Notes: a model not told the origin generated them from the sequence alone. A DNA stretch of 12,155 nucleotides from Candidatus Odinarchaeota archaeon (GCA_038826135.1 JAWBON010000034.1:1-12155); one strand, 5' to 3'. Numbered from the stretch's first letter, positions 1-12,155 are shown. A program made the numbers and translations.

Positions 1-891
1 ATCCAATGGGCTTTGACGGGTATACCTTATTCTTTTCTGTATTTCAGGTTTAAGCCACTCCCAGAAAAGCTTGTAAAGCTCGTTTATTCTTATTATTAAA
101 CCGTCGATAAAAACAGGCGCTGGAGCTAATTCTCCGCTCCGCATATAGTCGTCTATTGTTATCATAACCTCTTGAGCTCTACCAACAGCGAAAACGGGGA
201 TTAAAACTTTACCGCCGTTTTTAATAGTCTGGTTTATATCGCTCACGAATTTGCGCTCAGTTTTTTGAGTTGAAGGGTGTTTATCCTCAGGACCACCATA
301 CGTTGACTCCATTATTACAATGTCACCGCCCTCTGCTTTCAAATCAGCCATATCGAGTGTCCGAGTGTGTCTGGTGCTGATATCGCCTGTATAGAAAATA
401 GTTTTATCCCCGAGTGTGAGCTTAATCATCGAGGATCCTATTATATGCCCCGCATTGTAAAAGGTGACAGTGACATCGTTTTTTAATTTATATTTAACCC
501 TGAAATTCACATCGAAGGAATTCTTTCTTATTAACATGATGTCATTCATAGTGTACGGGACTGTTTCACCGCTTTCTTTAGCTATTTTAAGATTATCCGT
601 AGAAAGTATCTCGGTGATATCCTGGGTTGGAGGTGTAGTGAGCAGTTTACAACCATATTTACCTAACATAGCTGGCACATACCCTGAGTGGTCTAGGTGA
701 GCGTGGCTTAACAATATGTAGTCTGGTTTATCAGGTGATTCAAGCGGGTACTTTCCCTCCTCCCCTTCACTTAGATTAACACCTGAATCAAATAGAAAAC
801 AGCCTTTTTTCGAAGAAACTAGGAAAGAGGATCTGCCTACCTGCTTCGCACCGCCTAGAAAAATTATCTCTATATCTTCACTCAAAAACAT
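1..891 (-). CDS. Beta-CASP metallo-beta-lactamase ribonuclease (archaeal CPSF-like, no N-terminal KH domains); 3' end runs off the left edge
   Basis: Hand translation of the minus strand gives 297 open codons from ATG 891 to the edge: MFLSEDIEIIFLGGAKQVGRSS...FLFDSG...LLSHAHLDHSG...FYNAGHIIGSS...FYTGDI...MESTYG...LIPVFAVGRAQEV. These are MBL motifs 1-4 plus the beta-CASP entry motif. TTG at 885 is an alternative start, with GAGG 7 nt upstream. Not in the supplied ORF track because there is no stop within the window. Confidence 0.93.
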   Translation of the reverse strand, partial: MFLSEDIEIIFLGGAKQVGRSSFLVSSKKGCFLFDSGVNLSEGEEGKYPLESPDKPDYILLSHAHLDHSGYVPAMLGKYGCKLLTTPPTQDITEILSTDNLKIAKESGETVPYTMNDIMLIRKNSFDVNFRVKYKLKNDVTVTFYNAGHIIGSSMIKLTLGDKTIFYTGDISTRHTRTLDMADLKAEGGDIVIMESTYGGPEDKHPSTQKTERKFVSDINQTIKNGGKVLIPVFAVGRAQEVMITIDDYMRSGELAPAPVFIDGLIIRINELYKLFWEWLKPEIQKRIRYTRQSPLD

Positions 892-1041
892 TCCTCTAAT
901 ATTTAGTTAAGACATTAACCATATTCAGTTATTTTATTAAGTTTAACTATATTAAAAACTACTATTTTAAAGATGTTTGCTAAAAGTAATAATCTAAATT
1001 ACACTATATTATGTTAAAGATAACAATAACTATATAGAATC

Positions 1042-1785
1042 ATGAGATTATTCTTGAGGGATGTTATGTCTGGTGATGAGTTTCTGACAGCAGAGGCTGA
1101 TTTAAACCAGATCCCTCCGACTTTAATAACGCTGTTAGGTTTAAAGAAAACTGAATTTTTAGCTGAACCTATAGGAATCATCACCGAGAACGCTAAATGC
1201 GAGCGGATAGTTGTAATACTTTTAGATAATTTCGGCCTATTCGAATGTGTATATTATAAACCGCGTTTCATAATAACAAATGTTAAAGCGATTGTTTTAC
1301 TGAACTCTGATGATCCTTTCACTAAAAATGTAATGACCACTATAATACGCGGCGGAGCTGGCGGTAACAGTTTCAATCTATTCAACTACATTGTTAACAA
1401 TGGTTTGAAAGCTCAATTAATAGGGTGCTCTAACGATATAGAACTGTTAGGCACCGCTTTTAACACCACTATAACAAAAGATGACACTGAAACCTATGTT
1501 CAAGCGATTAAACTATTAAACCGTGTGGATCTCTTATGGATGCACTTCTTAGATTTTGAGAGACTGTACTCAACCTATAATTTTCAACCACCTATTACAA
1601 CAGCTCAAAAACTGATCACCCGCACAGATAAATGGATATTAACATTGCATAAACAGCTTAAAGAGAATTCGCTGCTTATCGTTATAGGAACCCACGGGAA
1701 TCGAAATATGGAAATGGGGTACGAAGAGCATTATAAGCGGCTGAGAGGCGCCAGTGTTCCTATAGCGGTATTCATAGAAAAATAG
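1042..1785 (+). CDS. Alkaline phosphatase / nucleotide pyrophosphatase superfamily protein, minimal and with degenerate metal ligands
   Basis: LNQIPPTLITLLGL, IVVILLDNFG (cf. vvlilvDGlG), DPFTKNVMTTIIRG (nucleophile region), LLWMHFLDFERL (cf. D..gH) and LLIVIGTHGN (cf. tlvivtaDHG) occur in the family order. Confidence 0.6.
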   Translation: MRLFLRDVMSGDEFLTAEADLNQIPPTLITLLGLKKTEFLAEPIGIITENAKCERIVVILLDNFGLFECVYYKPRFIITNVKAIVLLNSDDPFTKNVMTTIIRGGAGGNSFNLFNYIVNNGLKAQLIGCSNDIELLGTAFNTTITKDDTETYVQAIKLLNRVDLLWMHFLDFERLYSTYNFQPPITTAQKLITRTDKWILTLHKQLKENSLLIVIGTHGNRNMEMGYEEHYKRLRGASVPIAVFIEK

Positions 1786-1828
1786 GGCTTAAATAATTAT
1801 TTGAGTTAAACTATTATTGGTGAGTTTT

Positions 1829-3592
1829 TTGCTATTCCGCGAGCTTTCAGAGTACTATCAGCGATTGGAAAACACAACTAAGCGGCTCGAGATGACTGAT
1901 ATCCTCAGAGAGCTGATATCTAAGCTGGATCCGGAAGATATTGATAAAGTAGTGTATATGACTCAGGGTAAACTTCACCCCGACTGGTACGGTTACCCTG
2001 AGATCGGGATGGCGGAGAAAACGGTTTTAGACGTTATATCCGCTACGAGCGGTGTACCTGTTGAAAAAGTAACCTCTCTTCTGCAAGAGACTGGTGACAT
2101 CGGCTTAGCTGCGGAAAAAGCTCTGAAAAACAAGATTCAGAGAACAATAATCCAGGAGTTTGAGCCGTTGACAGTTCAATACGTGTATAATCAGCTTGAT
2201 AAAATTACGCGTCTATCCGGGAAAGGCTCAAGCGAGGATAAGAAGAGACTTTTTTCAGGATTACTTCACAGATGTATACCGATAGAGGCTAGATATATTT
2301 CTAGAATAGTTACCGGTAATCTTAGACTGGGAATAGCTGACATGACTCTTATGGACGCGCTCTCAATAGCTTTGGCTGGGAGTAAAGCTAGCAGGGAGGA
2401 TATTGAGAGATCCTACAATATTTGCTCTGATCTGGGTTTAATAGCTAAGAATCTTCTTCAGAGTGGAGTGGACTGGCTTAAAACAATTCAGTTAAAGGTC
2501 GGTGTCCCTGTTAGAATGATGCTAGCGCAGCGGCTTTCAACAATAGAAGAAATATTTGATAAAATAGGCCGGTGTGCTGTCGAGTATAAGTATGATGGTG
2601 AACGCTTCCAAATTCATAAGGATAAATCAGATATAAGAATATTCTCTCGAAGATTAGAGTCTATAACCGAGCAGTACCCTGATGCTGTTGAAATAATAAG
2701 CGATTCAGTGAAATGCGACACCTGCATCACCGAGGCTGAATGCGTAGCCGTCGACCCTGATAATGGTGAAATACTGCCTTTCCAGCAATTAATGCATAGG
2801 CGTAGAAAATACGAGGTTGAAGAAGCTGTTGAAACATACCCTGTGAAACTATTCTTCTTCGACTGTCTTTACAGCGACGGACGTCAGATGATTGATAAAC
2901 CCTATCCTGAACGAAGAAATTTACTGGAGAAAATTATTAGAGTGAACGATAGATGCGAGCTATCAACTCAGATAATCACAGATAACAGGGATGAGTTTGA
3001 AAGATTCTTTCACGAAGCGGTTTCCGCTGGCTGTGAAGGTGTTATCGCTAAATCTATACTGGAAGACTCGCTCTATCAGGCTGGTGGCAGAGGCTGGCTC
3101 TGGATAAAATATAAGCGCGATTACAGATCGGAGCTTACAGACACTCTTGACCTAGTTATTGTAGGCGCGTATGTCGGGAAAGGTAGGAGAGCCGGCACTT
3201 ACGGTACACTTCTAGCAGCCTGTTATGATCCCGACAGTGACGTGTTTAAGACTGTAGCGAGGGTGGGTAGCGGCTTCAAAGACGAGGATCTTTCAAACCT
3301 GTCCAATATACTGAAAAACCTTATAGTGCGCTCGAAAAACCCTAGAGTGGAAACAAATCTTGAACCTGATTATTGGATTCTCCCTAAACTAGTTATAGAA
3401 GTGAAAGGAGCTGAGTTAACGCTAAGCCCTATTCACACCTGTGCTTTTTCAAAAATAAAAAGCGGGGTTGGATTGGCTATAAGATTCCCCCGATTCACCG
3501 GTCGCATAAGAGATGATAAATCCCCTGAGGAGAGCACTACCGAAGAAGAGATAGTGGAAATGTATAATAATCAGATGAAAAGAATCAAGTAA
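1829..3592 (+). CDS. lig: ATP-dependent DNA ligase (archaeal, with DNA-binding, adenylation and OB domains)
   Basis: Adenylation motif VEYKYDGERFQIH, EGVIAK, motif V WLWIKYKRDY, DLVIVGAYVGKGRRAG and motif VI IRFPRFTGRIRDDK. The ORF track starts at TTG 1817. TTG 1829 (MLFRELSEYY) has GGTGAG 7 nt upstream and matches typical archaeal ligase N-termini. Confidence 0.97.
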   Translation: MLFRELSEYYQRLENTTKRLEMTDILRELISKLDPEDIDKVVYMTQGKLHPDWYGYPEIGMAEKTVLDVISATSGVPVEKVTSLLQETGDIGLAAEKALKNKIQRTIIQEFEPLTVQYVYNQLDKITRLSGKGSSEDKKRLFSGLLHRCIPIEARYISRIVTGNLRLGIADMTLMDALSIALAGSKASREDIERSYNICSDLGLIAKNLLQSGVDWLKTIQLKVGVPVRMMLAQRLSTIEEIFDKIGRCAVEYKYDGERFQIHKDKSDIRIFSRRLESITEQYPDAVEIISDSVKCDTCITEAECVAVDPDNGEILPFQQLMHRRRKYEVEEAVETYPVKLFFFDCLYSDGRQMIDKPYPERRNLLEKIIRVNDRCELSTQIITDNRDEFERFFHEAVSAGCEGVIAKSILEDSLYQAGGRGWLWIKYKRDYRSELTDTLDLVIVGAYVGKGRRAGTYGTLLAACYDPDSDVFKTVARVGSGFKDEDLSNLSNILKNLIVRSKNPRVETNLEPDYWILPKLVIEVKGAELTLSPIHTCAFSKIKSGVGLAIRFPRFTGRIRDDKSPEESTTEEEIVEMYNNQMKRIK

Positions 3593-3620
3593 AAACCCTG
3601 CTCGTATAAAAGGTGGTTGC

Positions 3621-4526
3621 GTGAAGACCTATGATGTTATTGTTATAGGAGGAGGCCCAGCGGGGTTATCCGCCGCTATTTACACAAGTAGAGCTAATTA
3701 TAAGACGCTTCTCATCGATAAAGGCGGTTGCCTTAACTTTAAAATAGGTAGAGTTAACAATTATTTAGGTTTCCCTGAAGGAATAGATGGAAGTGAACTA
3801 GTTAAACTAGGTTGTAAGCATATAAGACTTTTAGGCAGTGAAACTGTTAATGAAGAAGCTCTTAAAGTGAAAATGAAGAATGATCTTTACATTATTGAAA
3901 CTAACAGGTCTTCATATGCTGCTAAAGGACTTATTATAGCAATGGGTGTATCGTATAAGAAGCTGGAAATAGCTAACTTGGAGAAGTTTGAGGGAAAAGG
4001 CATAAGCTACTGCGTGACATGCGACGGGTTCTTCTTCAGAAATAAAACAGTCTTCGTTATAGGCTCTAAAAACTACGCTGCTAAGGAGGCTTTAGAGCTT
4101 ACAGATTACACAGATGATGTCACAATATATACTAATGGTTTAAAAATAGAGATGGATGAAGCCTTTATTGAAAAACTTAAATCTAAAAATATAGCGGTGA
4201 AAACCCCTAGAATAATTTCATTCATCGGCGATGAAAAATTAGAGGGTTTAAGATTAGAAAACGGTGAAGAAGTTAAATGCAACGGGGTTTTCATAGCAGT
4301 AGGCTCCTCAAGTTCAACTGATCTAGCTATGCAGCTTGGTATAATATTAGAGAACGGTTACATTAAAGTTGATAACAGGCAGAGAACAAATCTGCCACGG
4401 GTTTACGCCGCAGGAGACTGCACAGGCGGTGTTAGACAGATAGCTACAGCTGTAGGGCAAGGTGCAACAGCCGCTATTAATCTAATCTCAGAGTTTAAGG
4501 GCATAGAACACGTGGACTACCATTAG
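3621..4526 (+). CDS. trxB: Thioredoxin-reductase-like FAD-dependent disulfide oxidoreductase
   Basis: FAD motif IGGGPAGLSAA, redox centre SYCVTCDG and second FAD motif TNLPRVYAAGDC...QIATAVGQG. An SD-like AGGT lies 6 nt before the GTG. NADPH motifs are degenerate (see findings). Confidence 0.85.
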   Translation: MKTYDVIVIGGGPAGLSAAIYTSRANYKTLLIDKGGCLNFKIGRVNNYLGFPEGIDGSELVKLGCKHIRLLGSETVNEEALKVKMKNDLYIIETNRSSYAAKGLIIAMGVSYKKLEIANLEKFEGKGISYCVTCDGFFFRNKTVFVIGSKNYAAKEALELTDYTDDVTIYTNGLKIEMDEAFIEKLKSKNIAVKTPRIISFIGDEKLEGLRLENGEEVKCNGVFIAVGSSSSTDLAMQLGIILENGYIKVDNRQRTNLPRVYAAGDCTGGVRQIATAVGQGATAAINLISEFKGIEHVDYH

Positions 4527-4538
4527 AGGTTGATAGTT

Positions 4539-5306
4539 TTGAAAGCTGAGAGAAAAACATTTCAATTTATTATAAACAGAGATGGGGGTTTACAGCTTGT
4601 AGACGGTAACCCTAGTCTATTCGATGATAACTCGGTTATACTAGTCGTTGATGAAGAGAATTATAGAATCTGGCTTTACATAGGAGCTGCTGTATCCCTC
4701 ATCCATAAGAGAGCTGCGATGAGAGCTGCTAACTCGATAAGAAGATTCGGTTATCATTTAAATGAAAGCTTAATAGGCAATAAGTGTAAAGAGCTAATTG
4801 TAATCGACCCTGAAACTGATTCAGAGCAGCGATCGACAGCTGTGCAACAGTTAAAGTCAATTATCAACGCCAGCTCATCCACGCCGGTATTGGAAAAAGT
4901 TGAGAACGCCAGTAAACCGTTTAACTTCACTGATTTAAAGGAGAGGCCTCTTATCAGACCGATAGAAGAGTTGAATAAGAGTGTTGAACACTCAAGCGGT
5001 AAAACTTCAACCCTCTCTAAAAGTCTAGTGACTTCTTTAAAAACTAATAGTGAAACCAGTTACAGAAAACTAGGAGTATTATTAGCATCTATTCTATCAA
5101 TTTACCCGGAGATAAAAATCAGCCGGCTGGGTGAAGGTTACTCGGTTGAAGCTCCGAGCGGGGTTATCTGTAAATTAAAGGTTAAGAATGATAGGTTAAT
5201 AGTGTCCGCGTCTTCAACATTCGGCGGTGAAAAAATAAAGTATAAGATTCAGAAAAAATTCGTATATTTAGTGGAGAGAATGAAACCTCTATTTGAGTTA
5301 AAATGA
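4539..5306 (+). CDS. Gelsolin-like domain protein (N-terminal gelsolin fold, S/T-rich linker, uncharacterised C-terminal alpha/beta domain)
   Basis: FDDNSVILVVDEENYRIWLYIGAAVSLIHKRAAMRAANSI fits the gelsolin-repeat pattern (l.s.dvfild...iyvW.G...s..ek..A...A..i). The ORF track starts at TTG 4530, but GAGGT at 4526-4530 favours TTG 4539. The gene is next to profilin. Confidence 0.6.
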   Translation: MKAERKTFQFIINRDGGLQLVDGNPSLFDDNSVILVVDEENYRIWLYIGAAVSLIHKRAAMRAANSIRRFGYHLNESLIGNKCKELIVIDPETDSEQRSTAVQQLKSIINASSSTPVLEKVENASKPFNFTDLKERPLIRPIEELNKSVEHSSGKTSTLSKSLVTSLKTNSETSYRKLGVLLASILSIYPEIKISRLGEGYSVEAPSGVICKLKVKNDRLIVSASSTFGGEKIKYKIQKKFVYLVERMKPLFELK

Positions 5307-5331
5307 GTTTTAGTTGAATGAGAACTACAGT

Positions 5332-5697
5332 TTATAATATTTTAGCTAATTGACGCGCTGCTTTATCGATTTCAATATACGCGGTTCTCGCATCACCGTT
5401 AGGACTGACGTAACCTATTAATAGAGCCTTGGACCCTATAACAGCTCCGACTATATGACCGCGGCCGCCTACGTTTGTAGCTATTAGCCTGTCTTCGTTG
5501 ATATCTATAACTGAGTATTTAACGCCTTGTATAGTGATACTTGGCTCCTTGTTTTTATACACATTCACCGTATGAGCTCCGTCAACACTCCAATTCGAGC
5601 TTTGATAAAGGATCTCCCCCTTCATGGAAATAACAGCTGTAGCTCCTATGCTGCTTCCAGCTACAATAAGACCTCCAGCAAGCTGTTCAACACTCAT
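5332..5697 (-). CDS. Asgard profilin (actin-monomer-binding protein)
   Basis: 121 aa with GATAVISMKGEILYQSSNW, SITIQGVKYSVIDINEDRLIATNVGGRGHIVG and ALLIGYV...AYIEIDKAARQL. Recognised from memory as very similar to the characterised Odinarchaeota profilin. SD GAGGT lies 7 nt upstream. Confidence 0.93.
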   Translation of the reverse strand: MSVEQLAGGLIVAGSSIGATAVISMKGEILYQSSNWSVDGAHTVNVYKNKEPSITIQGVKYSVIDINEDRLIATNVGGRGHIVGAVIGSKALLIGYVSPNGDARTAYIEIDKAARQLAKIL

Positions 5698-5742
5698 ATA
5701 TATTACCTCACTGAATATTATTAGGTTAATTTAGATTTAAAT

Positions 5743-5755
5743 CTTTATATTTTCA
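5743..5755 (-). promoter_or_regulatory. Putative BRE plus TATA box of the profilin promoter
   Basis: The minus strand reads TGAAAA-TATAAAG about 45 nt upstream of the profilin ATG, leaving room for a short leader containing the SD. Confidence 0.5.
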
Positions 5756-5892
5756 GGTTAAAAAATGTTGCCTTGCTACATAATTATCATAAGATTAGGC
5801 TCTCAAAAGCTTTTTAACCAACGCTTCTGAACTATATTTTTAAAACTGTTTCCTAAAATTATTTAAAACCAGAGAATAGGAGTAGTGATAAA

Positions 5893-6852
5893 TTGACTTT
5901 AAAAGATTTAATAATAGATAAACCGCGAAAATTCCTCTTATTCGGAGGCAAAGGAGGTGTTGGTAAAACATCCAACGCTGCAGCTGCAGCAATATGGGCT
6001 GCTGAACATGGAATGGAAACCCTTATCATAAGCACAGATCCCGCTCACAGCCTCTCTGACAGCTTCGCCCAAGATGTCTCCGGTGGGGATATTCAGATAG
6101 TTAAAGGCGTTGAAAACCTGTTCGCTATGGAAGTTAACCCTAAAAAAGAATTTAAAAAATATCAGGAGACTCTCAGCGAAGAATCTTTAAACTCTCTATC
6201 CCCTCAATTCCCTATGCCTGACCTTTTAACAGATTTAAGCGGGTTAACTCCACCGGGAGCTGATGAAGCGCTAGCGTTTTCAAAAGTTCTGGAATTTATA
6301 GGAAGCAGCGACTATGATCTAATAGTCTTCGACACAGCTCCAACAGGTCATACGCTTAGACTTTTAAGTCTACCCGATTTATTAAACAGTTTTTTCGGTA
6401 AACTTTTAACATTCAGACTTAGATTATCCAGCATATGGGATAGATTTAAAACATTCTTCGGCAGAGGGGAGAGTGTTCACGATGACTCTCTGGAGAAACT
6501 TGAAACTTTAAAAAAGAATATTGAAGCCGCATCCTCCGAGTTATCCGATCCTAATAAAACAAGCTTCATAGTTGTTATGATACCTGAAGCTATGGCAATA
6601 TATGAGACTGAAAGGCTTCTATCAACACTTTACGAGTATGAGATACCTGTCGACCATATATTAGTTAACATGATTTACCCTGACATGCCTGACTGTGTTT
6701 TCTGCAGATCTAGAAAAACTATGCAGGATAAATATTTAAAGGAAATCCATACTTTATACTCGGAGTTTAACATTACAGAAATCCCGTTATTCAGCGATGA
6801 GATACGTGGAATACCTAAGTTAAAGGATTTAGCTGATATACTTTTTAAATAA
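5893..6852 (+). CDS. Get3/TRC40-type (ArsA family) single-domain ATPase
   Basis: Deviant Walker A GGKGGVGKT, switch I STDPAH, switch II DTAPTGHTLRLL and a helical insert after switch II. The only cysteines are the C-terminal CVFC (the Get3-type Zn dimer motif). No duplicated ArsA halves. Confidence 0.88.
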   Translation: MTLKDLIIDKPRKFLLFGGKGGVGKTSNAAAAAIWAAEHGMETLIISTDPAHSLSDSFAQDVSGGDIQIVKGVENLFAMEVNPKKEFKKYQETLSEESLNSLSPQFPMPDLLTDLSGLTPPGADEALAFSKVLEFIGSSDYDLIVFDTAPTGHTLRLLSLPDLLNSFFGKLLTFRLRLSSIWDRFKTFFGRGESVHDDSLEKLETLKKNIEAASSELSDPNKTSFIVVMIPEAMAIYETERLLSTLYEYEIPVDHILVNMIYPDMPDCVFCRSRKTMQDKYLKEIHTLYSEFNITEIPLFSDEIRGIPKLKDLADILFK

Positions 6853-6924
6853 CGCCGCGCACCAGCAAATAATAATCAAAAGATTTGAATATAACCGGTA
6901 TAAAATTAGTGAGTGGTGACGTGA

Positions 6925-7335
6925 ATGAAAGTCGTATCCAAGACTTTAACTGTATCGAGCAGGGCGAGAACCGAGATTATTAATATAACCTACCAGGTGA
7001 GGGATATAATCACCAAGGAGGGTTTAAAAAACGGTATCGTAAACATTTTTGTGAAACACACAACTTGCGGTTTAATTATTAACGAGGCTGAAAAAGGGCT
7101 TATCACCGATATTCTAAATTTCTTCAACAAACAGGCTCCTTATCAGGCTGGATACATCCATGATAGAATTGATAATAATGCTGACGCTCATTTAAAATCT
7201 ATTTTAACAGGTGTATCTGTCACTCTTCCTGTAATAAACGGGGAGCTAGCCCTCGGAACCTGGCAGTCTATTCTCCTATGCGAATTAGACGGGCCAAGGG
7301 AGAGAACAGTCAACCTTACATTCATGGTGGAATGA
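6925..7335 (+). CDS. yjbQ: YjbQ/UPF0047 family protein
   Basis: KHTTCGL, NADAHLKS, LGTWQSI and ELDGPRER family motifs; 136 aa; SD-like GGT 7 nt upstream. Confidence 0.92.
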   Translation: MKVVSKTLTVSSRARTEIINITYQVRDIITKEGLKNGIVNIFVKHTTCGLIINEAEKGLITDILNFFNKQAPYQAGYIHDRIDNNADAHLKSILTGVSVTLPVINGELALGTWQSILLCELDGPRERTVNLTFMVE

Positions 7336-7357
7336 TATTTTTAACACATGTTAACGG

Positions 7358-8242
7358 ATGAGCTGCTTGATAGGGGAAGTATTCGCTCTCATGGCTGCTT
7401 TAACCTGGGCTGTCGGCTCCATTTTCGACAGGATAGGTCTCACTAAAATACCGCCATTACTAGCTAATACAATGCGCTCTGTACCAGCCGCTATATTCAC
7501 TTTTATACTCACAGTGATTATCGAAGGTTTAACACCTTTAACCAGTATAACAGTTATAAATATAATCTATATACTCCTCGGTACAACATTCGCTCTCCTA
7601 ATAGGCGACTATTTATTTTTATATTCTCTTAGAAGACTGGGGGTTTCTAAAACAATGCCTATCGTCTCAGTTTACCCTGTATTCGCAATACTGGGTGCTA
7701 CACTTCTACTAGGCGAGATTGTAACAATCTTCGTAGTTATAGGAGTTGCCTCAACTATAACCGGGATATTTCTCATAAGTAGAAGCAACAGCGGTAAAAT
7801 TGAAAATACTGGTTTAAACCCTAAATATATGCTAATAATCCCGGTTATAGCCGCTGTAATGTGGGGTTTAGGCCAAGTATTCTTCGGATTAGCGCTTTTA
7901 GACACACCGCCTTTAACAATGACCACTGTCCGACTTCTATATTTCAGTTCTTTTTTAGTCACTTTAAATTTTACCTTGGGTGATAGAAAATTCTATAAAA
8001 AATATAATTCCTACTGGGGTAAGATGGCCACTATAGGCGGTTTTCTCTCACTAGCATTAGGCGGCTTATTTCTAATGCTGGGTCTAAACTACGCTGGGGT
8101 TTCTAAAACCTCGCCTTTAACCTCCGTTACACCTATGTTTTCAACTATTTTAGCCGTGCTTTTCTTAAAAGAGAAGTTAGATATCAATATATGCTTGGGG
8201 ACAGCTCTAATTATACTAGGCATAATCTTAATAGTTTTTTAA
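7358..8242 (+). CDS. EamA/DMT superfamily membrane transporter (two repeats, about 10 TM helices)
   Basis: Highly hydrophobic. The internal duplication LGVSKTMPIVSVYPVFAILGATLLLGE / AGVSKTSPLTSVTPMFSTILAVLFLKE is typical of EamA. Confidence 0.92.
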   Translation: MSCLIGEVFALMAALTWAVGSIFDRIGLTKIPPLLANTMRSVPAAIFTFILTVIIEGLTPLTSITVINIIYILLGTTFALLIGDYLFLYSLRRLGVSKTMPIVSVYPVFAILGATLLLGEIVTIFVVIGVASTITGIFLISRSNSGKIENTGLNPKYMLIIPVIAAVMWGLGQVFFGLALLDTPPLTMTTVRLLYFSSFLVTLNFTLGDRKFYKKYNSYWGKMATIGGFLSLALGGLFLMLGLNYAGVSKTSPLTSVTPMFSTILAVLFLKEKLDINICLGTALIILGIILIVF

Positions 8243-8329
8243 GTGTATTTACTATTATAAAGCGGTGGGGGTATTAGATTAAGCGACCATTTTCTTTTTG
8301 AAATAGAATCCGAGCCTCAAACACCAGCA

Positions 8330-8974
8330 TTGTGGAGGAAGCTCATCGGAATATTATACTCCCCTACAAAAACTTTAAAACTTTTAGCTAGGATGCCTGA
8401 CAGCCGGATTCCGTGGATTAACGCATCTCTGATAATATTTTTCACGTCACTATCCTATCTAAGCTTATACTTCCACATAACTGTCACAGGCTCCGAGGGT
8501 TTTGTAACCACTTTTAACAATTATTTTCTAGCTTCTTTAATCAGTGTTTTCCTCGTAAATACGCTTCTAACCTTTACAACATGGTTTATTATTGTTTTAG
8601 TATACTGGTTGATTACTAAACGCGTAGTTGTAAGAAATTATTACAGTGACGTGTTTAAACTGGTTGTAGCGTGTTTAACCCCTCTAATATTCAGCAGAAT
8701 TATTTTAGCCGCGGGCGTTTACATTACTTTACCTAGTATTATTATATTTGAAGGCCAGAGCGCTGAGATGATAGCGGGGGAAATGGCTGTTTTATTTAAC
8801 TCTTATACCTGGATAGTTTACAAGATTATCGATGCCGGAGTCTGGTTGTGGTGCGCTTTCATCATATCAATCGGTTTTAAGGAATTCTATAAAATCAGTT
8901 TTAAAAAATCCTTGCTTATCTCATATCTTGTTATAGGATTCTACTTATTTTTAATAATGCTCCCCGTATCTTAG
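8330..8974 (+). CDS. Yip1-domain integral membrane protein
   Basis: N-terminal ILYSPTKTLK motif, about 5 hydrophobic segments, and a C-terminal W...IISIGFKEFYKISFKKS pattern typical of Yip1-domain proteins. The frame is open upstream to 8261, so the true start may be about 8273. Confidence 0.7.
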   Translation: MWRKLIGILYSPTKTLKLLARMPDSRIPWINASLIIFFTSLSYLSLYFHITVTGSEGFVTTFNNYFLASLISVFLVNTLLTFTTWFIIVLVYWLITKRVVVRNYYSDVFKLVVACLTPLIFSRIILAAGVYITLPSIIIFEGQSAEMIAGEMAVLFNSYTWIVYKIIDAGVWLWCAFIISIGFKEFYKISFKKSLLISYLVIGFYLFLIMLPVS

Positions 8975-8976
8975 TA

Positions 8977-9981
8977 TTAGATAAATTTGAATTTTAATTT
9001 AACAGGTTTCTCTAAGTCCCCGCTGATCAAATATACTATATCGTTTTCTATTATATTATATTCTTTAAACTTGAATTCCGGGTCTAGAAACCTTCCCTTA
9101 TATATCATTTTAGAATCCTTTAACCCGAATATCATGTTTAAACGGGCAGTAGCGTTTTTAACCTCCTCTAAAGGGTTTATAGCAAACTCCTCTCCTTCTA
9201 TATTATACTTGTCGCCGCATACTATGCATTCAGGGTTTCTAGAAACCTCCATATATGTGAATCGCCCGCTCTCCCCGTCATAGAAGAGGTACTCTTTCAG
9301 CAAGCTATCTTTTAAACCCATAATTATCTTTAAAGCCTCCTGGCATTGTATCCCGCTTACAACCATACATGTAGTGTTGATTATCGGGGTTGGAGTTGTT
9401 TTACCATCTGTTTTTATTCTACGCGCCCTCCCAGCGGGTGAACAGTATTGTTGAAGTCTATTTCTAGGTATGAGAGGCTGGCATTCTAAACAGGCTGTCT
9501 GGTACGGTAACACTACCTGAACATCACCCCACCATCCATATAACGCTCCGTGAATTAAAGGCTTCTTTAAAGCCACGGAGATAGAGTTTAACCATCTTCT
9601 AGTTTCAAAACTATCTAAACCGTCGAGTATTATATCCGCTTCTTCAAATATTTTTTTATCAAGTCTTCTAAGATCGCTATTATAAGCCTCTACTACGACG
9701 GAAGGGTTCAGTTTTTCAAGTTTTAATTTAGCTATATCCGATTTAAATTTACCAACATCTTCTTCACTGAATAGAATCTGTCGATTAAGGTTAGAAACTT
9801 CAACAGTGTCATAATCCACTAATATCAGTCTTCCAACACCCATAAGAGTGAAATTCATCGCTGAGAAGCATCCTAAAGAGCCTACACCTGCCACTAAGAT
9901 AGTGCTCTTCTCTAATCTTTTTTGATTCCAATTCTTTAAAATAACCTGTCTGGAGTATCTTTCAATCTTTTTCATATTCAT
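8977..9981 (-). CDS. Ubiquitin-activating enzyme E1 (ThiF/UBA fold with catalytic Cys and C-terminal ubiquitin-fold domain)
   Basis: ERYSRQ, GVGSLG, LVDYDTVEVSNLNRQ, LDGLDSFETR, Zn pairs CLEC and CIVC, and a candidate catalytic Cys in QQYCSPAG. ATG 9981 overlaps the E2 stop (TGATG), suggesting translational coupling. The ORF track starts at 10002, inside the E2 gene. Confidence 0.92.
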   Translation of the reverse strand: MNMKKIERYSRQVILKNWNQKRLEKSTILVAGVGSLGCFSAMNFTLMGVGRLILVDYDTVEVSNLNRQILFSEEDVGKFKSDIAKLKLEKLNPSVVVEAYNSDLRRLDKKIFEEADIILDGLDSFETRRWLNSISVALKKPLIHGALYGWWGDVQVVLPYQTACLECQPLIPRNRLQQYCSPAGRARRIKTDGKTTPTPIINTTCMVVSGIQCQEALKIIMGLKDSLLKEYLFYDGESGRFTYMEVSRNPECIVCGDKYNIEGEEFAINPLEEVKNATARLNMIFGLKDSKMIYKGRFLDPEFKFKEYNIIENDIVYLISGDLEKPVKLKFKFI

Positions 9982-10442
9982 CAACTTATTTTTTGATTCC
10001 ATGTAGCATATTTAGAAACATATTCTCTGACAGTTTTTTCGAATTCAGAAGGCTTCAGCATCATTTGCTCAGCGGCAACCCTGTTAAGAGGATCTTTAGG
10101 GTTTGGAAAATTTAACAGATTTCTAATTGTCTCTATTACACCGACAAGATTAATACCCGGTCTCCAATCCTTCCCTAGAATACCAACGCAAACACGACCG
10201 TCTAATCCAATATTCGGATGCCAGATAGGGGTTTTAAATAAAACTCTCGGCGGCTCAAAAGGATAGGTCCGTTTAAGCTCTATATCTATGTAAAAAACAC
10301 CGTTATCATAAATTCCTGTACCTAGTATGACCCCTCTCCACGCTGTCACATCGCCTTTAACAGAGTGGAAGGTAGGCTCCTCCAATTCTAACTGCTGGGC
10401 TTCTACAGCCAGCCTTCTATAGAACGCCTCCTCTTCTAATAT
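9981..10442 (-). CDS. Ubiquitin-conjugating enzyme E2 (UBC fold), probable non-canonical ATA start
   Basis: W.G.I, YPFEPP, WHPNI, catalytic GRVCVGIL, DWRP and PNPKDPLN. Helix 1 (FYRRLAVEAQQL) lies in frame upstream of the ORF-track TTG at 10385, so the start is placed at ATA 10442. Confidence 0.95.
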   Translation of the reverse strand: MLEEEAFYRRLAVEAQQLELEEPTFHSVKGDVTAWRGVILGTGIYDNGVFYIDIELKRTYPFEPPRVLFKTPIWHPNIGLDGRVCVGILGKDWRPGINLVGVIETIRNLLNFPNPKDPLNRVAAEQMMLKPSEFEKTVREYVSKYATWNQKIS

Positions 10443-10449
10443 TTCACTT

Positions 10450-10455
10450 ACCCCC
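10450..10455 (-). promoter_or_regulatory. Shine-Dalgarno-like site for the E2 gene
   Basis: GGGGGT (within AAGGGGGTAAG) lies 7 nt upstream of the in-frame ATA. The same 6-7 nt spacing occurs at profilin, trxB, yjbQ, RING, ubiquitin and the gene at 11099. Confidence 0.6.
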
Positions 10456-10461
10456 TTTTAA

Positions 10462-10695
10462 CTAGCCGCCCTCTGTTCTCACAATCAAATATATTTTATC
10501 CTGCTCCTCCACCCCCGCTTCTTTTAATGTTAAATGATCTGCCTGTTCACGGCCTCTAAAGGCTAACACAAATGTGTCTGCAGGCAGATTCTTAACTTGG
10601 CTTATCTTTTTCTTCAAATCAGCGAATGTAGTTTTAGACTCAACTTCGAAAACCATTTTACTTCCACCTATAGCGGAAACAACCTCGATCTTCAA
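10462..10695 (-). CDS. Ubiquitin homologue (beta-grasp fold, C-terminal diglycine)
   Basis: 77 aa, with TFADLKKKI, LAFRGR, TLKEAGV and IYLIVRTEGG-stop. It lies between the RING and E2 genes, with SD GGAGGT 6 nt before the TTG. Confidence 0.94.
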   Translation of the reverse strand: MKIEVVSAIGGSKMVFEVESKTTFADLKKKISQVKNLPADTFVLAFRGREQADHLTLKEAGVEEQDKIYLIVRTEGG

Positions 10696-10698
10696 TTT

Positions 10699-10947
10699 TT
10701 AACCTCCAGAAGTTAAATCTTTTACACTTAGCTTACGGCTACAATTAGGACAGGTACCTTTAATTTTAACCCACTCTAAAACATGTTCCCGGTGAGAGGG
10801 TACCCCGCAGTAAGGGCAGAAAACTTTTGCCTCGAACTCATCTATTTCCGAGGCGCAGACTATACATTTTAACTTATCCCACACCCAATCCCCTACTGAA
10901 ATTTTCCTTGAAATATAGAATCTACCGGGAACAGACTCTAATACCAT
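10699..10947 (-). CDS. Small RING-finger protein, putative E3 ligase
   Basis: C-x2-C-x12-C-x2-C-x4-H-x2-H-x10-C-x2-C, with the E2-contacting Trp in LEWVK and a CPNC knuckle. SD AGGAGGT lies 6 nt upstream. First gene of the ubiquitin operon. Confidence 0.85.
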   Translation of the reverse strand: MVLESVPGRFYISRKISVGDWVWDKLKCIVCASEIDEFEAKVFCPYCGVPSHREHVLEWVKIKGTCPNCSRKLSVKDLTSGG

Positions 10948-11098
10948 TAGGTAACCTCCTTAACTATATTTTAATTTTTTAAAATAAAAAGATACATTAT
11001 AAATAAGTGGGATTCAACCAGCTATAAAATAATAGGTTTAGTAATCTTTTTTACACTGGATGTGTAGAATATTATCAGATTTACGGCGGGGTTATTCT
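10948..11098. promoter_or_regulatory. AT-rich divergent promoter region between the ubiquitin operon and the coiled-coil/UEV genes
   Basis: A 151-nt non-coding gap between head-to-head genes, with several TATA-like AT tracts on both strands. Individual boxes could not be assigned with confidence. Confidence 0.5.
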
Positions 11099-11536
11099 AT
11101 GGGTTTGAAAGATAAGAGAATACCTGTTGAACTGAAGGTGATTAACACACCTAAAGGAGAGGTGCCGACGGTTGAAAGCTTTAAAAACCTTGTGAACGGT
11201 TTGAATATCCTAGACTCTGAGATTGAATCGTTGAGAGGAGAGTACCTGAAATTGATTGAAGAGGTTAGGAGAGATGTTAAATCTGTGAAGAAGCTTGTTA
11301 TGGATAATACTATTAGCCTCGAGTCTGTTAATGAAAAACTTGTGCAGCTGAATAAAACACTGAGTGAATCTTTATCGAATGAAAACGCTTCCATAAACAC
11401 TCTTAGAGATGATTTTTCAAAAGCTTTAAACGACTTGTTGAAGGCTCAGAGAAACCTTGAAGAATCATTTGTTAAATCCATTGAGAGTATTTCTAAAATT
11501 GTAGGCTTAAAATTAAGCGCTAGAAAAGAGGGGTGA
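11099..11536 (+). CDS. Hypothetical long coiled-coil protein (145 aa)
   Basis: A short N-terminal beta-hairpin-like segment (IPVELKVINTPKGEVPT) followed by about 105 aa of 3-4/3-4-4 hydrophobic periodicity. GGGGT 6 nt before ATG 11099 favours this start over ATG 11060. Confidence 0.8.
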   Translation: MGLKDKRIPVELKVINTPKGEVPTVESFKNLVNGLNILDSEIESLRGEYLKLIEEVRRDVKSVKKLVMDNTISLESVNEKLVQLNKTLSESLSNENASINTLRDDFSKALNDLLKAQRNLEESFVKSIESISKIVGLKLSARKEG

Positions 11537-11595
11537 TTATAGAAGAACTGTTTTTAACTAAGTTTCGCGCTAATACTATAATAGGTGATTAAATT

Positions 11596-12155
11596 ATGGA
11601 TAACGAGATTGTGTATAGGGAAGCTGAATTAATGTATAAGATGGCTCCAGGATTTACACCTGTTAACGGCAACTTAAAACACTGGACTGGTGAAATAAAG
11701 TTTAAGTCAGAGGACCGTGTTTCAAATTGTTTAATCGATATACTTCTGCCTGAAAACTTCCCTTCCTCACCGCCCACAGTCTCCTCTCTAACCGGTTTAA
11801 GACACTCCACTATAGATCCTGCTACAGGACGTTTTGCTCTAAAAATATTAAGAGATTGGAAACCTAAAAACCATGTTTACGAGATAGTTAACGCTATTAA
11901 AGATGAATTTTCAAGGAAAAGCCCTAAATTACTAGGCTCTCTGAAACCTATATCTAAACCATCTGCAATTCGTGAACCACCCTCATATAATAGCCTCAAA
12001 GATTTAGAGGTTAAAATAAAAGATTTAGAGGAGGAGATAGAGGGTCTTAGAAAGAATATAGCTGAAAAAAATGCGGAAATAAGTAGGCTTCAAACTGTTT
12101 TGAAAACAAAAAGTTTAAGTTCAAACCTGCCAGCAGAACAGTCTCCTTCAGATAG
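11596..12155 (+). CDS. UEV-domain, Pro/Ser linker and coiled-coil protein; Vps23/TSG101 (ESCRT-I)-like; runs off the right edge
   Basis: Hand translation from ATG 11596 (SD AGGTGAT upstream) has no stop before the edge: MDNEIVYREAELMYKMAPGFTPVNGNLKHWTGEI...IDILLPENFPSSPPTV...RHSTIDPATGRFALKILRDWKP...VYEIVNAIKDEF. This is a UBC fold with HPN replaced by HST and the catalytic Cys by Ala. It continues KPISKPSAIREPPSY and then LKDLEVKIKDLEEEIEGLRKNIAEKNAEISRLQ. Absent from the ORF track. Confidence 0.8.
   Translation, partial: MDNEIVYREAELMYKMAPGFTPVNGNLKHWTGEIKFKSEDRVSNCLIDILLPENFPSSPPTVSSLTGLRHSTIDPATGRFALKILRDWKPKNHVYEIVNAIKDEFSRKSPKLLGSLKPISKPSAIREPPSYNSLKDLEVKIKDLEEEIEGLRKNIAEKNAEISRLQTVLKTKSLSSNLPAEQSPSD

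Follow-up and report, generated by a model that had tools for sequence, protein, structure and literature searches.

Neighbours of the ubiquitin-ESCRT supercluster on an Odinarchaeum contig: one functional locus or inherited gene order?

Does a dense group of eukaryote-like genes on one contig of a hot-spring Candidatus Odinarchaeota archaeon (GCA_038826135.1, JAWBON010000034.1:1-12155) work as a single unit? The stretch under study, called the window here, makes up an entire contig, C34 (12,155 bp), in a genome of 1.26 Mb which was assembled into 105 contigs and is 93% complete. [quoted passage not shown] An original prediction had combined them into one locus for membrane remodelling and quality control of membrane proteins. 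Our comparison led to a different answer. The right-hand 3.8 kb is the published Asgard ubiquitin-ESCRT supercluster, which comprises Yip1, the genes RING-ubiquitin-E2-E1 and a divergent operon encoding a coiled-coil protein and UEV-Vps23. The genes to the left of it probably owe their place to a gene order inherited within the Odin order and not to membership in one functional unit, Yip1 being the only extra gene that is widely kept.

Extent of the linkage among Asgard archaea

The genes for ubiquitin-type E1, profilin, gelsolin-like protein, Get3 and Yip1 were mapped in 100 genomes across the phylum. Maps of open reading frames (ORFs) were drawn for 20 E1 neighbourhoods and for 33 named loci found via the coiled-coil protein. 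Sequence matches identified the source genome as another species in the genus of Ca. Odinarchaeum yellowstonii LCB_4; in the complete relative G002 (1,418,269 bp) the orthologue is annotated as OdinLCB4_005800. Within this genus full synteny of the whole contig was observed, including the genes for a beta-CASP nuclease and a DNA ligase.

In the sister family (f2) the gene order is profilin-x-Get3-YjbQ-histone deacetylase-Yip1-E1-E2-(ubiquitin)-RING-RING-coil. The histone-deacetylase-family gene lies on the other strand at the position of the EamA transporter gene. This 411-residue gene beside Yip1 was also considered as the longin-Rab GTPase of the Hod clusters and rejected, as it encodes a histone-deacetylase-family protein. 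The gelsolin-like gene of f2 is found about 10 kb away, still directly downstream of the DNA ligase gene, and the intervening genes encode an aminoacyl-tRNA synthetase, an M24 peptidase, a HAD hydrolase, a Na/Ca exchanger and others. UEV-Vps23 is located 13 kb off. What was retained in the sister family is the block as a whole and not its eukaryote-like genes specifically.

Outside the Odin order the linkage was not observed. The following distances were measured in complete genomes:

G017 (Atabeyarchaeia): E1 to profilin 551 kb, E1 to Get3 246 kb
G027 (Atabeyarchaeia): E1 to profilin 501 kb, E1 to Get3 164 kb
G040 (Freyarchaeia): E1 to profilin 795 kb, E1 to Get3 79 kb
G029: E1 to profilin 359 kb, E1 to Get3 1.4 Mb
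G073: E1 to profilin 364 kb, E1 to Get3 1.5 Mb

Gelsolin-like matches lay 0.25-1.3 Mb from E1 in G017, G027 and G040; G029 gave no match and none was listed for G073. All other genomes with a ubiquitin-type E1 outside the Odin order carried profilin, Get3 and the gelsolin-like gene on contigs different from that of E1. Likewise, at none of the 30 named loci outside this order (Hermod-, Baldr-, Atabey-, Frey-, Jord- and Hod/Heimdall-labelled) did the 9 kb or so around the coil gene contain profilin, Get3 or a gelsolin-like gene. Profilin was found in 79, Get3 in 91 and Yip1 in 93 of 101 sampled Asgard genomes, with or without a ubiquitin-type E1. The three are widespread regardless of E1, and their presence does not track the cluster.

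Consequently, the proposed extension of the cluster to actin regulators and Get3 did not hold up, the linkage being confined to two families of the Odin order. The prediction had named restriction to a single genome or genus as the outcome that would speak against it, and the comparison ended close to this, with the order in place of the genus; the adjacency of Yip1 and E1 survived in 7 Asgard families. The genes for the gelsolin-like protein, profilin, Get3, YjbQ and EamA would then be where they are through the inherited gene order of a small, compact genome.

Several observations weigh against this reading. The linkage exceeds the genus, as the sister family keeps profilin, Get3, YjbQ and Yip1 no more than 4.5 kb from E1. 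In the Loki-like family f9, which has 4-6 profilin paralogues, 6 of 11 genomes, from three genera, carry the best-matching profilin gene at a distance of 16-19 kb from Get3, and given this finding there may be a faint older neighbourhood of profilin and Get3. The adjacency of Yip1 and E1 is kept far more widely than ordinary synteny would suggest. Finally, the 100 genomes are a sample of a larger phylum set, and many of the assemblies are fragmented.

Examples of the f9 arrangement are G042:C27:216407-236087, G057:C22:19333-37351 and G064:C16:6382-26071. A further Get3 neighbourhood was seen in Freyarchaeia (f19), where four genomes belonging to one genus have a second, 390-residue ThiF-family (E1-like) gene some 4 kb from Get3 (G040:C1:1906014-1911373, G048:C157:39524-45018). 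This second ThiF gene is distinct from the E1 of the ubiquitin cluster, which is 79 kb away.

The ubiquitin-ESCRT core, Yip1 and the coiled-coil protein

Positions 4530-12155 contain 12 ORFs according to ORF listing, Pfam and NCBIfam, where 13 genes had been predicted:

4530-5306, plus strand: predicted gelsolin-domain protein (AlphaFold2 (AF2) fold, Foldseek, VIA-align)
5332-5697, minus strand: profilin (phmmer against 5ZZA, Pfam)
5893-6852, plus strand: Get3/TRC40/ArsA-family ATPase (PF02374, TIGR00345)
6925-7335, plus strand: YjbQ/UPF0047 protein (Pfam, 137.9 bits; NCBIfam TIGR00149)
7358-8242, plus strand: EamA-type transporter (Pfam, 137.7 bits)
8330-8974, plus strand: Yip1-domain membrane protein (Pfam PF04893)
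8977-10002, minus strand: E1 (Pfam ThiF, 224 bits)
9981-10385, minus strand: E2 (Pfam UQ_con, 120 bits)
10462-10695, minus strand: ubiquitin (Pfam, 57 bits)
10699-10947, minus strand: RING protein (Pfam, 28.8 bits against a cut-off of 29.1; eight Cys/His ligands)
11060-11536, plus strand: conserved coiled-coil protein, likely true start ATG at 11099
11596-12153, plus strand: UEV-plus-coil Vps23-like gene, cut at the contig end (Pfam UQ_con, UEV)

All gene types named in the prediction were recovered at their places by ORF listing, Pfam and structure comparison. The majority of eukaryote-like genes was confirmed as far as these types are concerned, and the genes outside it are YjbQ (UPF0047) and EamA, two ordinary prokaryotic genes which are co-directional with Get3 and Yip1. 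The region from the gelsolin-like gene to UEV is divided into five transcription units of alternating orientation. The density of the island alone is within chance expectation: about 0.8-1 eukaryote-like gene is expected among 14 flanking genes, if 80-100 such genes are present among about 1400, a figure which is our rough assumption and not a measured count. Rfam and tRNA scans detected no RNA genes in the window. No sequencing run on record as RNA contains the stretch; two runs that bear the label metatranscriptomic but are probably DNA and are stored only as contigs, together with two DNA runs, yielded only scattered read-sized pieces at a depth of 2-4.

The genes RING-ubiquitin-E2-E1 form a co-directional operon with an overlap of 22 nt between E2 and E1 and a gap of 3 nt between RING and ubiquitin. 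The catalytic features of the encoded proteins are intact: the E2 contains the HPN motif and the catalytic Cys, the ubiquitin ends in GG and the RING protein has its eight Cys/His ligands. The same order was found in Hermod-, Baldr-, Atabey-, Frey- and Jordarchaeia. The UEV gene scored 36.5 bits for UQ_con and 27.1 bits for UEV, and both the HPN motif and the catalytic Cys are missing. UEV-Vps23 is a catalytically dead E2 fold followed by a coiled coil. Since the window is the whole contig, it is the assembly that truncates this gene; of its roughly 250-260 residues 186 precede the contig end, and they are 57-60% identical to the orthologues of 250-260 residues in the genus.

In the complete LCB_4 genome the same order is followed by Vps28, EAP30/Vps22, Vps25, Vps4 and two Snf7 (ESCRT-III) genes. 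A search for adjacent ESCRT genes in the source genome, as the prediction had suggested, led to contig C57, which carries the C-terminal part of Vps22, then Vps25, Vps4, two ESCRT-III genes and SSB. Because C57 ends inside Vps22, C34 and C57 are neighbours across a gap of about 1.4 kb. The Vps4 match (G000:C57:4988-6631) falls into two parts with about 390 nt between them. Vps28 was unmatched in the source assembly in a Pfam VPS28 search which gave no match in control genomes either, and the gene probably falls in the gap between C34 and C57.

This half of the region had been recognized as known from the outset, and the Pfam families, the gene order of LCB_4 and the published description of the Odin ubiquitin-ESCRT cluster (Hatano et al. 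2022, PMC9192718) agree with that. In the same work, for which Odin proteins were purified, Odin ubiquitin was reported to bind the UEV domain of Vps23, and Vps23 to bind Vps28. Lu et al. (10.1101/2023.07.25.550441, cited as Cell Rep 2024) describe the mono-ubiquitylation of UEV-Vps23 by a Helarchaeial E1-E2-RING cascade. By the biochemistry of these orthologues, E1, E2 and RING would attach ubiquitin to targets, and the ESCRT-I protein UEV-Vps23 would read the ubiquitin and pass the targets on to ESCRT-II, ESCRT-III and Vps4. The AT-rich, presumed promoter region between the divergent RING and coil genes (10948-11098) would allow joint control of tagging and ESCRT-I.

The Yip1-domain protein reached 35.5 bits with PF04893 (cut-off 28.6) and contains several hydrophobic segments; its orthologues scored 34-57 bits and have 4-6 such segments. 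Its gene is arranged tail-to-tail with E1, the stop codons being 2 nt apart. Of about 55 genomes with a ubiquitin-type E1, 25 have the same tail-to-tail pair, 0-70 nt apart or overlapping; they belong to 7 of the about 15 families that possess this E1, namely Odin f1 and f2, Hermod f12 (12 of 12 evaluable), Baldr f15 (4 of 4), Hod-type f21, f8 and f14 (1 of 3). In f3 and f18 Yip1 stands beside ubiquitin or at a distance of 5-7 kb from the cluster. Yip1 and E1 show no linkage in f4, f7, Frey f19 and f24, and in Atabey f13 the cluster is present and no Yip1 match was obtained. An N-terminal zinc ribbon (CPxC...CPxCG) is present in Yip1 of the sister family and in the Hermod, Baldr and Hod orthologues (e.g. 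L026:17641-18426, L035:3947-4705); the Odinarchaeum protein, and likewise that of f8, is without it (alignment A3). The genes for membrane proteins of 357-371 residues adjoin E1 in f7, but a reading of these proteins as divergent Yip1 was dropped: Pfam gave no match for them, and the real Yip1 of f7 is encoded elsewhere. Directly beside the Yip1-E1 pair of Hermod- and Baldrarchaeia lies an ORF of about 965 residues (L035:804-3698, L039:4789-7707, L042:4204-7104), which in L035 (Hermod) is leucyl-tRNA synthetase (LeuRS) according to Pfam.

A cluster with Yip1 and a Rab-like GTPase has been described for Hodarchaeia (Lu et al., 10.1101/2023.07.25.550441). Our survey extends the published pairing of Yip1 and E1 to Odin, Hermod, Baldr and two further families. 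Yip1 is the sole extra gene whose place beside the ubiquitin genes is widely kept, and its product may be a membrane partner of the cluster. A stronger version of this idea makes Yip1 a working partner of the ubiquitin cascade, as membrane anchor, receptor or substrate, with Yip1, the ubiquitin operon and the ESCRT-I operon as one unit. We regard it as possible and, on balance, unlikely. The frequent tail-to-tail pairing, the proximity to ubiquitin in f3 and f18, the cytosolic N-terminal zinc ribbon of most orthologues and the Hodarchaeia cluster argue for it. However, the pair is convergent and hence not co-transcribed, Yip1 occurs in nearly all sampled Asgard genomes even where ubiquitin-type E1 is missing, Atabeyarchaeia possess the cluster and gave no Yip1 match, and Frey-, f4- and f7-type genomes have both genes unlinked. 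Moreover, LeuRS is kept beside Yip1 in Hermod- and Baldrarchaeia and a LeuRS-sized ORF is found near E1 in f24, which indicates that old gene order can persist without function. Inherited order remains the preferred explanation for the genes left of the cluster, with Yip1 as the most widely kept extra.

The coil gene is the first of the ESCRT-I operon and points away from the RING gene. An AF2 model of its product, with a predicted local distance difference test (pLDDT) value of 82.4, consists of a short beta-hairpin containing the motif TPxGxVPTV and then a single helix some 120 residues long. Nineteen (19) sequences from at least 8 lineages, from Odin to Hod/Heimdall-labelled, share this motif without variation (alignments A1 and A4). 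In the window, the hairpin at the N-terminus is encoded within 11099-11200. Coil homologues were found at 33 loci in the genome contigs, between RING and UEV-Vps23, or beside RING-ubiquitin if UEV lies elsewhere, in Odin, Hermod, Baldr, Atabey, Frey, Jord and Hod/Heimdall-labelled genomes. A PDB sequence search returned chance-level matches only, and a complex prediction of coil and UEV-Vps23 (the LCB_4 pair, with alignments) gave no verdict, at a score of 0.00.

The coil protein matches the description of asCOG005522, an uncharacterised protein in Asgard UEV-Vps23/ubiquitin clusters (Lu et al., 10.1101/2023.07.25.550441). The prediction had listed the orphan coil as a candidate member of the locus; it is indeed a constant member of the cluster, and its membership is already published and not new. 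Compared with its published extent, the conserved unit might be larger by two components, a zinc-ribbon Yip1 as receptor, anchor or substrate and asCOG005522 as a fourth, stalk-forming ESCRT-I subunit like Vps37/Mvb12, which we put forward as a tentative and rather doubtful assignment.

The gelsolin-like, profilin and Get3 genes

The gelsolin-like gene starts at 4530 in our map and at 4539 in the public gene call. Assignment to the Pfam family Gelsolin (PF00626) failed at 13.4 bits (cut-off 21, E 0.072), and only 2 of 48 family members reached E 0.01. A PDB sequence search with the protein gave no match. A full HMMER search collected a family of 66 representatives, and an AF2 model based on 48 members (pLDDT 83.6) showed two domains. 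The N-terminal domain (residues 9-113) was superimposed by VIA-align on the Thor ProGel structure 7C2F with Z 12.1 and 1.9 Å over 88 of 88 residues. The first 22 VIA-align matches were gelsolin, villin, fragmin or Sec23/24 gelsolin-like domains, and Foldseek likewise returned 7C2F_B (Thor ProGel) as best match, then gelsolin domains. In the model, the N-terminal domain is unambiguously of gelsolin fold. The C-terminal domain (residues 172-256; window 5044-5306) is built of a helix, four strands and a helix and produced just generic matches with Z of about 5. The predicted architecture is one gelsolin domain plus an alpha/beta C-terminal domain without clear structural relative. This C-terminal domain recurs in other proteins of 240-264 residues in the same genomes (G000:C100:1572-1802, G002:C1:1209893-1210192, G001:C3:85589-85864). 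By homology, the protein is a credible actin binder.

Upstream of it, positions 1-4526 are occupied by a housekeeping block; the same flanking genes occur in the genus and in f2:

1-891, minus strand: beta-CASP metallo-beta-lactamase RNase-like gene (Pfam, NCBIfam)
1042-1785, plus strand: 247-residue protein without Pfam match
1817-3592, plus strand: ATP-dependent DNA ligase (Pfam, NCBIfam)
3621-4526, plus strand: thioredoxin-reductase-like (TrxR-like) gene (Pfam, NCBIfam)

The gelsolin-like gene begins 3 nt past the TrxR-like gene and probably forms the end of the DNA ligase-TrxR transcription unit; its location downstream of DNA ligase is shared by the two Odin families. The 247-residue protein, for which only a faint phosphopentomutase/alkaline-phosphatase-like NCBIfam match was obtained (E 3e-4), has its gene beside that for beta-CASP in each of the two Odin families.

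Profilin was matched over its full length by the Odin profilin chain 5ZZA_P (phmmer, E 3.4e-59), is 83% identical to the LCB_4 orthologue and scored 23 bits in Pfam, slightly below the cut-off of 25. Its gene is a single-gene unit which converges on the gelsolin-like gene across a gap of 25 nt and diverges from Get3. Both the gelsolin-like protein and profilin would act on Odin actin independently of the ubiquitin-ESCRT cluster. That they make up a separate small pair for actin control in Odinarchaeum, with no relation to ubiquitin-ESCRT, appears improbable to us. They are convergent neighbours in 4 of 4 genomes of the genus, and both are credible actin binders by homology. On the other hand, convergent genes have no shared promoter. 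In the sister family about 10 kb separate the two, with the gelsolin-like gene staying at the DNA ligase gene, and no other lineage has them linked.

The ATPase gene was assigned to the Get3 type with 316.5 bits for PF02374 and 307 bits for TIGR00345 (cut-off 135). It encodes a single ATPase domain with a CVFC (CxxC) dimer motif. The best PDB matches were archaeal and eukaryotic Get3 structures, and the archaeal Get3 entries 3ZQ6 (1e-77) and 3UG6 (5e-72) scored better than ArsA of E. coli (9e-40). Near the gene, no Get1/2 or WRB/CAML-type receptor gene and no gene for a tail-anchored client was identified. Get3 would here be a housekeeping chaperone ATPase; its gene pairs with YjbQ, and the profilin gene stands alone.

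That the whole 7.6 kb is one functional locus at least in Odinarchaeales, in which Get3 inserts, ubiquitin tags, ESCRT sorts and actin control is added, is very improbable: the co-location in the genus is unusually dense, and profilin, Get3 and Yip1 stay near E1 in the sister family, but the linkage is kept in no other Asgard lineage sampled, presence and absence of the genes do not co-vary, the transcription units are five separate ones, and DNA ligase, the beta-CASP nuclease and other housekeeping genes are kept in the same synteny block, so that retention is not specific to the eukaryote-like genes. If true, such a locus joining actin control, tail-anchored insertion, ubiquitin tagging and ESCRT sorting would suggest that a eukaryote-like life cycle of membrane proteins was already wired in Asgard archaea. 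The comparison speaks otherwise, as the modules are scattered outside the Odin order. The genes that truly travel with ubiquitin-ESCRT are those for Yip1 and the coiled-coil protein, and they are the testable residue of the finding.

Comparison with known systems

The ubiquitin-ESCRT gene cluster of Ca. Odinarchaeum yellowstonii LCB_4 was reportedly presented by Zaremba-Niedzwiedzka in 2017. From the beta-CASP gene to UEV-Vps23, every gene of our window has its LCB_4 counterpart in the same order, at protein identities of 47-88%, whereas the cluster is split here over contigs C34 and C57 of a fragmented assembly. As in the clusters of Lu et al., the coil gene heads the UEV-Vps23 operon beside RING and ubiquitin. 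Yip1 stands beside the ubiquitin genes both here and in the Hodarchaeia cluster; in contrast to the latter, no Rab-like GTPase gene is present in our region, and the zinc ribbon has been lost from Yip1 of Odinarchaeum.

The gelsolin-like protein can be compared with the mini-gelsolins ProGel and 1DGelX of Thorarchaeota (Akil et al. 2020, PMC7444086; PDB 7C2F). It belongs to the same architecture class as Thor 1DGelX, in which a single gelsolin/cofilin-type domain is followed by a non-gelsolin C-terminal part. However, this part is modelled here as a compact helix-four strands-helix domain, whereas domain X of the Thor protein is a predicted coiled coil. Profilin is the orthologue of the Odinarchaeota profilin in PDB 5ZZA, a complex with rabbit actin, with no difference of note. 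The ATPase is the same single-domain, CxxC-containing enzyme as archaeal Get3 (3ZQ6, 3UG6) and eukaryotic Get3/TRC40 and is farther from the tandem ArsA. Altogether, the contig carries a known system in a new genome, with some novelty only in the breadth of the Yip1-E1 pairing and in the conserved coil protein.

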